This document shows positions 348 through 64,000 of a stretch of DNA of 64,000 nt, piece by piece; position 1 is the stretch's first letter; every line of letters begins with the position of its first letter. A program made the position numbers and the translations under genes. The stretch lies in the IMG/VR virus record IMGVR_UViG_2721755651_000007. The stretch is one strand, 5' to 3'. The DNA is from a virus. Its lineage: Duplodnaviria > Heunggongvirae > Uroviricota > Caudoviricetes. The notes under the pieces were generated by a model. That model was not told where the DNA came from, did not search any database, and worked only from the letters and a program-made list of their open reading frames with translations.

Positions 348-668
348 TCAGGACTGAATGCGTCTGTAACAACCGCACTGATAGTCTGCCAGACCCGCCA
401 TAACCAGCTGGGTCAGTATTAACTGGCAGCGTTCGCGTGAAAGGTAAGTATTCTGCGCAATCTCCCCGACTGTCGCCGGTTCGGTAACGCTTAATTCATT
501 AAACACCACTCTGGCGGTTTCTGTCATATCCTGCTGTTTTAGCATGTCTTTTTCCCTTTTCCGGTTAACGTGACATACCAATAACTCTTGTCGAAAAAGC
601 CAGCAAGTTGAAAGACCGGTATTAGCAACCACCAGCGCGTTTAACGCCCCGTGCCGTTTTTCAGTCAT
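348..668 (-). CDS. hypothetical small protein, first ORF of late operon (possible winged-helix-like C-terminus)
   Basis: ATG directly follows tR'-like terminator downstream of Q; near-identical paralog at 48772..49092. Confidence 0.45.
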   Translation of the reverse strand: MTEKRHGALNALVVANTGLSTCWLFRQELLVCHVNRKREKDMLKQQDMTETARVVFNELSVTEPATVGEIAQNTYLSRERCQLILTQLVMAGLADYQCGCYRRIQS

Positions 669-691
669 AAAAAAACCCGCAAAAAGCGGGC
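669..691 (-). terminator. intrinsic terminator (tR'-like) downstream of Q
   Basis: Minus strand GCCCGC-TTTTT-GCGGG hairpin followed by T7 run; position between Q and first late ORF. Confidence 0.5.
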
Positions 692-769
692 TCTTTCAAA
701 TGTCCATGTCTGCTATTCGCCTCGCGGTACAGCTTTGCGAAGCTTACCGGAATTGAAGCAGTTTTTACG

Positions 770-1336
770 TCAAAAAGCAATAACTTTTTTCTCTATACCA
801 AAAGCCATAACCATTGGTTTGTACAAAATAAATTCTGCCACCTTTAGCCAATGCTCAATGCGTCTTTCACAGGTTCTTAAACTCCATTCCGGATGTGCAT
901 CATTCAGCAATTCAGCCATTTTGCGCTTAGTCATCCCCCGCCCCACATAACGCTGACTCAGAACATTGAGCAGCCCGGGATAACCTGCCAGTACTTCACC
1001 AATAACCCTATCGATTATTAACGCCTCTGAATCGGTACAATGTGCCAGCCAGCTTTTTTGATTGCCGTTGATCATATCCCGCAAAAAAGCCTCAAGTTCA
1101 GGTTTGTCCAGACCCGCTTTTTTCATCCTCCGGAGCGCCTCGTTAATTGCCGTTTTTGTCAGCTTTTTAGAGGTCAGTAATTGGTTGAACATATTTCCCG
1201 TCTTACCGTCGCCAATATACGACCAACGCCCCCACATACGCAGTTTCCCCTGGATCCAGACACTTTCCAGCGTTTTCAGGCGTAAATGCTCACCGCTTTT
1301 GCCTGTAATTTCCGGGTATATCATATTTATGCTCAC
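770..1336 (-). CDS. late-gene antiterminator Q-like protein
   Basis: 188 aa; position between rusA and late terminator; paralog 49211..49753; family assignment by position and recollection. Confidence 0.55.
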   Translation of the reverse strand: MSINMIYPEITGKSGEHLRLKTLESVWIQGKLRMWGRWSYIGDGKTGNMFNQLLTSKKLTKTAINEALRRMKKAGLDKPELEAFLRDMINGNQKSWLAHCTDSEALIIDRVIGEVLAGYPGLLNVLSQRYVGRGMTKRKMAELLNDAHPEWSLRTCERRIEHWLKVAEFILYKPMVMAFGIEKKVIAF

Positions 1337-62579: not shown

Positions 62580-62643
62580 TGTTCAACCCCGGTCGTTGCC
62601 CACCAGCTATAGTGGCGGCGACCATGATTAGCGAACGACGCTC

Positions 62644-62892
62644 ATGGCAAGACTTATTCTGCTCACTGAGTGGGCAAAAGAGGAATTCAGTGAACCGGTC
62701 CCAACTCCGAGTACGTTAAGTAAATACGCTAAAGCCGGAATGATATTTCCTCTCCCCAAAAAAGTTGGAAGACGCTGGCGAGTGGATCCGCAAGCTCGCT
62801 TTGTCGGAATGGTAAACAAGCCGGAGGTGATCGCCACAGATCACCCTGCTTTGAAGAGGATACTGGAAGATGGCGCGCCCGCGAAAATATAA
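62644..62892 (+). CDS. xis: excisionase
   Basis: 82 aa immediately upstream of and overlapping int; ...LLTEWAKEE...RRWRVD... lambda Xis-like. Confidence 0.7.
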   Translation: MARLILLTEWAKEEFSEPVPTPSTLSKYAKAGMIFPLPKKVGRRWRVDPQARFVGMVNKPEVIATDHPALKRILEDGAPAKI

Positions 62893-64000
62893 AACCGATG
62901 TTCCGGGATTATCTCCGTATTTTGACAAAAGAAATAACAAAGTTTACTGGCGTTACAGGCATCCCATAACAGGCAAAAATCACGGTCTCGGCAGTATTGA
63001 CCAGAAACTGGCAGAAACTATTGCAGCAGAAGCGAACAGCCGTCTTGCCCGGCAGCAAATGGAACAAATGCTCAGTCTGCAGGAGAAAATTATTAGTGAT
63101 ACCGGCGGTTCATCAACCGTTACCATTTTTCTGAATAATTACAGAAAAATTCAACAGGAAAGATATGAAAACGGCGAGATCAAACTCAACACGCTGAAAC
63201 AGAAAGCGGCCCCTCTCAGGGTATTTGATGAACGTTTTGGCACCAGACCGTTAGATGCCATAACCGTAAAAGATGTGGTATCAGTACTGGAAGAGTACAA
63301 GGCCAGAGGACATAACAGAATGGGACAAATTTTCAGGAAAGTACTGATCGATGTTTTCCGGGAAGCTCAGCAAACGGGCGATGTCCCGCCAGGCTTTAAC
63401 CCTGCAGAATCGGCAAAAAAACCGCAGGTGCGGATATCAAGACAGCGACTGACTTTTGATGAGTGGATGATGATTTATAACGCAGCGGAAAAGGATGGTT
63501 ACTTTTTACAGCGCGGTATGCTGCTGGCACTGATGACAGGCCAGCGCCTTTCAGATATTTGCAAAATGCAATTTTCGGATATCCGGGATGGTTATCTTCA
63601 TGTCGAACAGCAAAAAACAGGAACCCGGATTGCCATCCCTCTGGCTCTGCGTTGCGATAAATTAAATCTCACCCTGGATGATGTGGTGTCATCCTGCCGC
63701 GATTGCGTTCTTAGTCCGTGGCTATTGCACCACCATCACGCGAAAGGGACAGCTAAGCGCGGCGGGATGGTTAAGCCAGCAACATTAACCGTTGCATTTA
63801 AAAAAGCCCGGGATTCTGTGGATTACAACTGGCGTGCTAATGGCACCCCTCCCTCTTTCCATGAGCAGAGATCTTTATCAGAGCGATTGTTCAGAGAGCA
63901 GGGGGTTGATACCAAAATTTTGCTAGGCCATTCGAATCAAAAAATGACCGATATTTACAACGACGCACGCGGTAAGGAATGGAAAAAACTGGTCATTTGA
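62870..64000 (+). CDS. int: lambda-family tyrosine integrase
   Basis: 376 aa; ...GQRLSDICKMQFSDIRDGYLHVEQQKTGTRIAIPL...HEQRSLSERL...LLGHSNQKMTDIYNDARGKEW. Confidence 0.9.
   Translation: MARPRKYKTDVPGLSPYFDKRNNKVYWRYRHPITGKNHGLGSIDQKLAETIAAEANSRLARQQMEQMLSLQEKIISDTGGSSTVTIFLNNYRKIQQERYENGEIKLNTLKQKAAPLRVFDERFGTRPLDAITVKDVVSVLEEYKARGHNRMGQIFRKVLIDVFREAQQTGDVPPGFNPAESAKKPQVRISRQRLTFDEWMMIYNAAEKDGYFLQRGMLLALMTGQRLSDICKMQFSDIRDGYLHVEQQKTGTRIAIPLALRCDKLNLTLDDVVSSCRDCVLSPWLLHHHHAKGTAKRGGMVKPATLTVAFKKARDSVDYNWRANGTPPSFHEQRSLSERLFREQGVDTKILLGHSNQKMTDIYNDARGKEWKKLVI

Follow-up and report, generated by a model that had tools for sequence, protein, structure and literature searches.

Strain Sakai of Escherichia coli O157:H7 reportedly carries two lambdoid prophages in tandem, Sp11 and Sp12, and large chromosomal rearrangements bounded by prophages are said to occur in this serotype. 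Qin, the cryptic prophage of E. coli K-12, is about 20 kb in size. Recombination between such prophages is already documented (Chen 2013, as cited in Stanton 2020; Stanton 2020, PMC7430833; Fitzgerald 2021, PMC8743559). A crossover between the adjacent prophages Phi804-9 and Phi804-10 at a direct repeat of the antirepressor gene removes about 47.7 kb (Stanton 2020), and the same authors cite Chen 2013 (AEM 79:1934) for similar, spontaneous Sp11-Sp12 deletions in Sakai. Structural variation near the replication terminus has been linked to Shiga-toxin production, type III secretion and motility (Fitzgerald 2021).

The 64,000-nucleotide stretch of DNA analysed here (the window) is 100% identical to the minus strand of positions 1752283-1816282 of E. 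coli O157:H7 strain 319 (CP018241). It contains the right third of Sp11 (prophage A, 1-14968) followed by a whole lambdoid prophage (prophage B, 14969-64000; Table 1). Positions 1-20796 match Sakai 2190434-2211230 at 99.9-100% identity; Sakai itself was rejected as the source, as the window departs from it after position 20796 and its IS629 sits elsewhere. Prophage A corresponds to Sakai Sp11 (100%) and the junction between the prophages is the annotated Sp11/Sp12 boundary, in agreement with a preliminary description that had recognised two lambdoid prophages in tandem. This Sp11/Sp12-left junction was found, in one place, in 245 complete genomes, and the tandem is therefore not an assembly artefact. 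We are highly confident that the window shows the O157:H7 Sp11/Sp12/Sp9 prophage cluster in its strain 319 arrangement, with recombination at the longest near-exact tracts.

Segments 1-5557 and 6867-14968 are collinear with the annotated Sp11 (99.99-100%). They carry the late-start ORF, a Q-like antiterminator, RusA, DUF968, hok/sok and nin-region genes, then P, O, the cII-like YdaT, cro, a truncated repressor, dicF, dicB, ydfD and truncated exo/int. In strain 319, Sp11 extends left as far as its border with ydfJ' at window coordinate -32217, and this upstream part holds lambda-type terminase, head and tail genes, on to dinI. At the right end, an exonuclease VIII fragment lies in ORF 13153-14397, xis is absent and a C-terminal integrase fragment (14379-14930) covers positions 52-165 of the 172 of the Phage_integrase profile. 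The Sp11 repressor is disrupted (Asadulghani 2009, PMC2669165). Prophage A had at first been taken for a deletion remnant. This holds only for the exo C-terminus, xis and the int N-terminus, which are missing; the prophage is otherwise a full 47-kb element with 32 kb of intact late genes left of the window, and its remnant look is mostly due to the window edge.

Table 1. Features of the Sp11/prophage B region, in window coordinates.
Feature	Position	Strand	Remarks
Right third of Sp11 (prophage A)	1..14968	-	100% to Sakai NC_002695.2 2190434-2204088 except one IS629
R1, Sp11 copy (65-aa ORF, DUF1133/Q-like, RusA, DUF968)	276..2773	-	2505 nt, 85.6%
R2, Sp11 copy (hok, mok leader, sok)	3542..3980	-	85.2%
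IS629/IS1203 (IS3 family) in Sp11 nin-region gene	5556..6866	-	ALIL pseudoknot; at this site in strain 319, not in Sakai
R3, Sp11 copy (DUF1627 gene, P, C-terminal part of O)	6928..8874	-	78.3%, longest exact tract 45 bp
Sp11 immunity region (YdaT/cII-like, cro, truncated LexA-type repressor)	9436..10817		
R4, Sp11 copy (upstream leader, DicF, only the 5' part of dicB)	12182..12791	+	91.4%, longest exact tract 93 bp
Decayed Sp11 right end	13153..14930	+	Pseudogene annotation; partial Exonuc_VIII in Pfam
Left end of prophage B, including dinI	14968..15365	+	398-bp exact direct repeat
Prophage B, complete but defective hybrid lambdoid	14969..64000	-	
Partial IS256-family element, broken by ISEc8 (IS66 family, 16221-18662)	15366..19058		
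Late-gene tract (tail, head, terminase, lysis), 17.7 kb	26993..44757	-	99.6-99.96% to inverted copy
984-bp exact tract over antirepressor gene (42775-43344)	42700..43683	-	
R1, B copy	48698..51187	-	Self-BLAST
R2, B copy (hokD, sok)	51924..52340	-	
R3, B copy	53937..55880	-	Self-BLAST
R4, B copy, variant DicF	59134..59743	+	
exo (823 aa), xis, int (376 aa), all intact, Sp9 type	60108..64000	+	99.94% to Sakai Sp9

Shared repeats and the sites of recombination

Self-BLAST of the window gave four co-oriented repeat pairs (R1 to R4, all E-values ~0) spaced by 48.4, 48.4, 47.0 and 46.95 kb, in the order and at the distances first reported. Their gene content was also as described: Pfam recognised DUF1133/antiterminator Q, RusA, DUF968, HOK_GEF, lambda P, a DnaT-domain O-like protein and DicB. 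To call the repeats near-identical was an overstatement, since R1-R4 are 78-91% identical; taken 100 nt at a time, the repeats vary between 39 and 100% identity. Five exact tracts of at least 74 bp lie wholly in the window (335, 103, 93, 79 and 79 bp), the longest in R1 (1724-2058 and 50141-50475), and a further exact match of 48 nt joins 13099-13146 to 60052-60099. When Sp11 and B were compared in full, there were 26 such tracts of at least 74 bp, up to 1115 and 984 bp. Between the two prophages the encoded proteins are 77% (Q-like), 92% (RusA), 91% (DUF968), 90% (Hok), 90% (P), 72% (DicB) and 47% (YdfD) identical, and O is 63% identical over its C-terminal two thirds only. The type I toxin-antitoxin system hok/sok was recognised by Pfam HOK_GEF (81 bits) and by two Rfam sok matches (3764-3938, 113.5 bits; 52149-52298, 103.9 bits). 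DicF (Rfam RF00039) lies upstream of dicB in Sp11 at 12461-12512, with 75 bits against a gathering threshold of 48 bits; the B variant (59415-59464) scores 43.5 bits, under that threshold, its 5' part being conserved and its terminator hairpin divergent. These repeats, about 48 kb apart, correspond to the mosaic homology modules usual in lambdoid phages (Q-nin, hok/sok, O-P, dicF-dicB) and did not arise by duplication.

The early-region repeats (Q-rusA-DUF968, hok, O-P, dicF-dicB) might themselves be the main substrates for deletion and duplication, as their five exact tracts exceed the efficiency threshold of about 74 bp cited by Stanton 2020 (PMC7430833). Several results make this improbable. 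Predicted chimeric junctions were searched against 5,426 complete genomes, with R1 and R4 as the queries for the listed repeats, and neither an R1 (Q-rusA-DUF968) nor an R4 (dicF) recombinant was found in these genomes by junction query. For the R1 product (Sp11 late-start region joined to the paa side of B), the hits with at least 80% coverage belonged to other serotypes and did not exceed 98.2% identity, the best reaching 87% coverage. The best match to the R4 product (Sp11 immunity region joined to B exo) had 100% coverage at 95.0% identity; the top hits were prophages of O145 and other serotypes, with no O157 recombinant among them. In addition, homologous recombination should be strongly reduced between sequences that diverge by 9-22% overall, and the crossovers in the recombinants examined sit in the lysis-module repeat. 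By comparison with the longest near-exact tracts, the early-region repeats (78-91%) would be poor substrates. Among the R4 search hits, relatives of Sp11 carry a full-length exo.

Recombinant genomes with other joints do exist. A joint between Sp11-late and Sp12-early regions was present in 26 genomes, the tandem being collapsed to one hybrid prophage; in ERL05-0623, a single 46-kb prophage lies between ynfA and ydfJ'. A joint between Sp9-early and Sp11-late regions was present in 66 genomes, including strain 272, which carries the reciprocal product too. Both numbers count joints by query contiguity, as three recombinant genomes were opened (272, 10671 and ERL05-0623) and one joint was mapped to the base. 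In strain 10671, the Sp11-early/Sp12-late segment is lost at both loci examined, and the mapped crossover falls inside the 984-bp exact tract, whose Sp11 partner is a direct repeat 48913 bp away at -6213..-5230, outside the window. The joints examined fall in the lysis/antirepressor module, the Sp11 copy of which lies 5-6 kb left of the window. The proposal that direct repeats of the tandem serve in deletion or duplication stands in principle, with losses of about 47-48 kb reported by Stanton 2020 and collapsed variants found here, but not for the listed repeats R1 and R4.

The idea that strain 10671 arose directly by deletion from a tandem like that of strain 319 was rejected, as its Sp11-late region is only 98.75% identical. 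Strain 10671 is 98.4-98.8% identical in places to strains 319 and 272 and has 110 private differences in a 9.3-kb three-way alignment. A route via a strain 272-like inversion and then a deletion fits equally well. Since strain 10671 descends directly from neither 319 nor 272, we infer such histories, and the order of events, from architecture.

Homologous recombination between the prophages does reshape the cluster, and its sites are the longest near-exact tracts: the antirepressor/lysis tract of 984 bp, the J tract of the tail genes and the late region of 17.7 kb. Where direct repeats cross over, one prophage-equivalent (47-49 kb) is lost; where inverted repeats do so, the terminus-proximal chromosome is inverted. 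The reaction presumably depends on RecA and RecBCD; Fitzgerald 2021 (PMC8743559) considered RecABCD likely and left open the choice between host and phage recombinases.

The hybrid second prophage and the large inversion

The left end of prophage B is of Sp12 type, with dinI, IS elements, nleG genes, a tail fibre gene, lom and J, and the exact repeat at this end has its partner at the left end of Sp11 (-32215..-31818), 47183 bp apart. The head, lysis and early genes are of Sp9 type, and xis and int come last, adjoining ompW (int stop codon at 64000, ompW start 46 bp past the window). Only 14969-20796 is identical to Sakai Sp12; 20.8-44.8 kb is 96.8-97.9% identical to it, the early region is not that of Sp12, and the right flank is ompW, not ynfA. 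Sakai Sp9, on the other hand, matches 34624-59224 at 99.05% and 59295-64000 at 99.94%, with ompW adjacent. B has a methylase gene at 47563-48621 and paa at 52487-53245. The Sp9 right end (nleA, nleH, nleF, espM1 and the ompW 3' duplicate) is not in B but sits about 0.38 Mb away at yciE, joined to the Sp12 early region, and B is therefore a hybrid, which the preliminary description had overlooked together with the large inversion that made it. Self-BLAST also detected local repeats at 34376-34905 (portal region), where Tandem Repeats Finder reported no array.

An inverted copy of the 17.7-kb late-gene tract lies about 0.38 Mb away in strain 319, in a third prophage (yciE...ynfA) that is the hybrid reciprocal to B. 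This inverted homology explains the large inversion, and the tract is, to judge from its sequence, both substrate and footprint of that event. Sp9 (at ompW) and Sp12 (at ynfA) are in inverted orientation, and a crossover between the two flipped about 0.38 Mb and set the Sp9 early half beside the Sp12 left end and Sp11. A crossover in the tape-measure gene was considered and withdrawn, since the 27-44.8 kb tract is common to B and the third prophage over its entire length. The crossover behind B can be placed only within 27-43.7 kb, and gene conversion may have played a part as well.

The exact B hybrid (22-37 kb, 100% in one piece) was found in strain 319 only, so that one assembly alone documents the adjacency of ompW, B and Sp11, and the tract to be spanned is long and near-identical. 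The Sp9-early/Sp12-left/Sp11 arrangement could then be an assembly error across this late region, a possibility that we regard as very improbable: inversions of the same type, but with different crossover points, are seen in many independent complete assemblies (strain 272 and 65 others), the Sp11/Sp12-left junction itself recurs in the 245 genomes mentioned above, and optical mapping together with Nanopore reads has verified prophage-bounded inversions in O157 (Fitzgerald 2021, PMC8743559).

We also considered whether the cluster could switch its prophages reversibly between a mobilisable and a locked state, through Int/Xis acting on inverted sites; this seems unlikely. The Sp9-type int/xis and one attachment site would lie at ompW and the other site, inverted, about 0.38 Mb off at yciE; these positions and orientations are deduced from the flanking ompW fragments. 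Excision of Sp9 would be impossible in this inversion isomer, and Int/Xis would flip the 0.38-Mb segment, restoring an empty ompW site and stacking three prophages at ydfJ-ynfA. In addition, one crossover within the antirepressor tract could bring the Sp11 structural genes together with the Sp9 integration/replication genes, all intact. Sp9 circularises in Sakai.

Separate origins of the two prophages

The repressors of A and B gave no meaningful alignment, and their Cro and YdaT proteins are 34% and 32% identical. The immunity region of B (56339-57585) is unrelated to that of Sp11, and the prophages are therefore heteroimmune. As the head modules also differ, being of lambda type in Sp11 and made up of other genes in B, these are separate phages and not a duplication: A and B are separately acquired, defective and arranged head to tail. 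There is practically no chance that one prophage was recently duplicated in tandem and the copies then diverged, for although A and B share their orientation, a similar length (~47 and 49 kb), the same gene order and the 398-bp exact repeat at their left ends, their repressors are unrelated, Cro and YdaT are only ~33% identical, terminase, head modules and exo and int types differ and each half matches a different Sakai prophage, so that, on the sequences compared, this reading is already refuted by the heteroimmune regions and different head modules.

Comparison with described systems

Taken together, these results confirm a published phenomenon and correct which repeats are active; they open no new question. 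Inter-prophage recombination at this locus restructures the O157:H7 genome and alters how many copies of cargo genes it carries (the nleG effector genes, paa and dicF among them), and PFGE and MLVA typing patterns should change too. Such recombination belongs to the structural variation near the terminus described in Fitzgerald 2021 (PMC8743559).

The Qin prophage of K-12, which carries dicF-dicB-ydfD, hokD and intQ', occupies the same chromosomal site (ydfJ...ynfA) as the cluster, and its ydfC-dicB-ydfD-exo'-int' segments are homologous to the window, with about 92% identity where aligned. Qin is a single decayed remnant, whereas this locus holds two prophages of 47-49 kb with virulence cargo (nleG genes, paa). 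The Sp11-Sp12 tandem of Sakai resembles the window in its ydfJ' integration locus, its disrupted int and repressor and its prophage boundary. In contrast, the second prophage differs from Sakai Sp12 from 20.8 kb on, where it has the Sp9 early half, and ends at ompW instead of ynfA.

The Phi804-9/Phi804-10 deletion is the same in locus and mechanism class, and the same kind of product is present in the 26 complete genomes with a collapsed tandem. The antirepressor repeat involved, which differs from the repeats first listed for the window, is an exact tract of 984 bp in strain 319 and measures 822 bp in FRIK804. Like the rearrangements of Fitzgerald 2021 (PMC8743559), the inversion of about 0.38 Mb has lambdoid prophages at its ends whose shared sequence exceeds 5 kb at no less than 98% identity. 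Strain 319 (CP018241) belongs to that dataset, and the window is one end of such a rearrangement, with nothing essential different.

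Repeats shared by the two prophages

The whole window matched, at 100% and in one piece, the minus strand of E. coli O157:H7 strain 319 (NZ_CP018241.1 1752283-1816282), and among the matches listed strain 319 alone gave a one-piece match to the first 20 kb. In Sakai, NC_002695.2 2190434-2211230 corresponds to the first 20.8 kb, the sole difference being one IS629, and runs from the right end of Sp11 across the annotated Sp11-Sp12 boundary into the left end of Sp12. Two lambdoid prophages in tandem, as proposed in the preliminary description, are thus confirmed, Sp11 being followed by a second prophage, B. 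The IS629/IS1203 copy of the window disrupts a DNA-binding protein gene of the Sp11 nin region (target overlap 4 bp); the Sakai IS629 is not at this site but at a position equivalent to about window 15250.

Features of the tandem (window coordinates)
Feature	Sp11	B	Strand	Remarks
R1 (Q-rusA-DUF968)	276-2773	48698-51187		85.6%; spacing 48.4 kb
R2 (hok/sok)	3542-3980	51924-52340		85.2%; spacing 48.4 kb
R3 (P-O)	6928-8874	53937-55880		78.3%; spacing 47.0 kb
R4 (dicF-dicB)	12182-12791	59134-59743		91.4%; spacing 46.95 kb
Tail gene J tract		24968-26082		1115 bp exact
Antirepressor tract		42700-43683		984 bp exact, inside 2.6-kb repeat at 95.8%
dinI left end tract		14968-15365		398 bp exact
DUF6645/SASA esterase gene tract		44910-46759		98.5% over 1.85 kb, exact for up to 373 bp
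IS629/IS1203	5556-6866			ALIL frameshift pseudoknot at 6415-6531
nleG7, nleG pseudogenes		19208-19858	minus	left end
AgvB (anti-GcvB sRNA)		in 46911-47180	plus	Rfam 56.6 bits
STnc100		in 46911-47180	minus	Rfam 175 bits; adjoins AgvB
Two tRNA genes		47290-47522	minus	
paa/adfO adhesin gene		52487-53245	minus	nin region

Self-BLAST of the window identified four repeat pairs between Sp11 and B (R1 to R4), all co-oriented. Pfam, Rfam and RefSeq annotation bore out the gene content first listed for them: in R1 a 65-aa ORF, a DUF1133/antiterminator-Q protein, RusA and DUF968; in R2 Hok and sok; in R3 P and an O-like DnaT-domain protein, of which the C-terminal two thirds are shared; and in R4 DicF and dicB, R4 extending over dicF and the first part of dicB only. 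The repeats are real and 46.95-48.4 kb apart, but "near-identical" overstated the degree, since identity is 78.3-91.4% by self-BLAST; it varies from 39 to 100% per 100 nt, and the encoded proteins are 47% (YdfD) to 95% identical. The longest exact tract within the window is 335 bp (1724-2058 and 50141-50475, 3' end of the DUF968 gene), and the others of at least 74 bp measure 103, 93, 79 and 79 bp. The best direct repeats of the whole tandem are not R1 to R4: they are the J, antirepressor, dinI and DUF6645/SASA tracts, whose Sp11 copies all lie left of the window.

The 5' half of the B dicF copy (59415-59464, plus strand) is exactly as in 12461-12512, whereas its terminator hairpin is rewritten in both stem and loop; this copy scores 43.5 bits against an Rfam threshold of 48 bits. 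Between the two prophages, the leader upstream of dicF and the beginning of dicB hardly differ. A second, weak STnc100-like match (32.5 bits, 59453-59658) overlaps the dicF-dicB leader.

In strain 319, Sp11 runs 32 kb further left, up to a truncated ydfJ, with lysis genes, a lambda-type terminase, portal, capsid, tail, J, lom, a tail fibre, three nleG-family genes and dinI. Because of these 32 kb, Sp11 is a 47-kb prophage, not a stump, and the term "deletion remnant" fits its 2-kb right end only, where exonuclease VIII and integrase are reduced to fragments (the latter covering profile positions 52-165 of 172) and xis is missing. Its repressor is disrupted (Asadulghani 2009, PMC2669165). Parts of window 11072-14982 (ydfC-dicB-ydfD-exo'-int') align to K-12 Qin (about 92% identity, ~23% of the query), and a relationship between the two decayed right ends is suggested.

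The repressors of Sp11 and B are unrelated, Cro and YdaT are ~33% identical, and the terminase and head modules differ, as do the exo and int types. The two prophages are heteroimmune; because of this and of the differing modules, the repeats are taken as mosaic modules common to two separately acquired lambdoid phages and not as duplication products.

Recombinant joints in other genomes

Predicted crossover junctions were constructed and then searched in 5,426 complete E. coli genomes; among R1 to R4 the searches covered R1 and R4, and three recombinant genomes (272, 10671 and ERL05-0623) were opened. None of the 5,426 genomes held the R1 recombinant (closest, other serotypes, 87% coverage and 98.2% identity) or the R4 recombinant (closest, O145 and other serotypes, 95.0% identity). 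The Sp11-late/Sp12-early joint was present in 26 of them at 99.7-100% identity; as Sp11 and Sp12 are co-oriented, it would be a deletion product. ERL05-0623 has one 46-kb hybrid prophage between ynfA and ydfJ', whose alleles are Sp12-type as far as the antirepressor gene and Sp11-type beyond it, and this single prophage is most probably such a product. The Sp9-early/Sp11-late joint was found in 66 genomes at 100% identity, the predicted 14.82 kb being spanned exactly in each. Strain 272 also carries the reciprocal product, which argues for an Sp9 x Sp11 inversion. Strain 10671 has the joint and has lost the Sp11-early and Sp12-late segment, the crossover lying inside the 984-bp antirepressor tract. 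Just past the crossover of this hybrid, the B-type sequence contains a short Sp11-type patch within the YdfR gene (3 sites; L007 22587-22931, corresponding to window 44295-44470), which has the look of gene conversion or of an inherited allele. In 245 genomes the early region of Sp11 is still found in one place with the tandem junction. The view of the repeats as recombination substrates was right in kind, but the active repeats lie elsewhere than R1 and R4.

Composition of prophage B

B occupies 14969-64000; the last base of the window ends the integrase stop codon, and ompW, which in Sakai is the site of Sp9 and not of Sp12, begins 46 bp beyond. As far as 20796, B and Sakai Sp12 are identical; against Sp12 of strain 272, differences are almost absent until about 28.5 kb, where divergence sets in. 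B matches Sakai Sp9 at 99.05% in the stretch 34.6-59.2 kb and at 99.94% in the stretch 59.3-64 kb. Its reciprocal hybrid lies in strain 319 between yciE and ynfA, with the Sp9 right end (espM1, nleG, nleF, nleH, nleA), late genes and the Sp12 early region. This third prophage shares 17.7 kb with B (window 26993-44757), inverted and at 99.6-99.96% identity. The simplest reading makes B a hybrid left by an inversion of ~0.38 Mb, with Sp9 and Sp12 recombining at some point of the 17.7-kb tract, within which the crossover is not placed more finely. A contribution of gene conversion to B is possible. In its exact form the ompW-B-Sp11 arrangement occurs in one assembly only; analogous isomers are common.

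B is defective. At 26730-27355 the C-terminus of L is lost, K and I are wholly absent and J is frameshifted; the portal gene (33911-36432) carries a frameshift and an internal stop. At 34376-34905 self-BLAST shows local repeats, 107-165 bp long, and the exonuclease gene contains a 21-nt tandem repeat (61638-61741, plus strand; 5 copies, 73% matches) encoding a repetitive stretch. AgvB and STnc100 are flanked by the DUF6645 gene on one side and the tRNA genes on the other; the CAT-anticodon gene is tRNA-Met according to ARAGORN and tRNA-Ile (ileZ type) according to RefSeq, and at the equivalent place Sp12 has three tRNA genes and Sp11 two. The virulence cargo (paa/adfO, nleG7 and the nleG pseudogenes) would be kept or lost according to which crossover occurs.

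Comparison with published rearrangements

Overall, the initial interpretation was right in kind and wrong in detail as to the active repeats and both prophages. The phenomenon is already known, and our results reproduce published findings, adding counts from complete genomes. Sakai has eleven lambdoid prophages, including Sp11 and Sp12, whose integrases are both disrupted and neither of which circularised in the assay (Asadulghani 2009, PMC2669165). A 47.7-kb deletion between two adjacent prophages via an 822-bp direct repeat at the antirepressor gene has been described (Stanton 2020, PMC7430833), and similar spontaneous Sp11-Sp12 deletions in Sakai are attributed to Chen 2013, as cited there. 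The strain 319 accession belongs to the dataset of Fitzgerald 2021 (PMC8743559), a study showing a continual formation of inversions and duplications bounded by prophages, both in culture and in cattle; host RecABCD and phage recombinases are considered as agents with no choice made between them.
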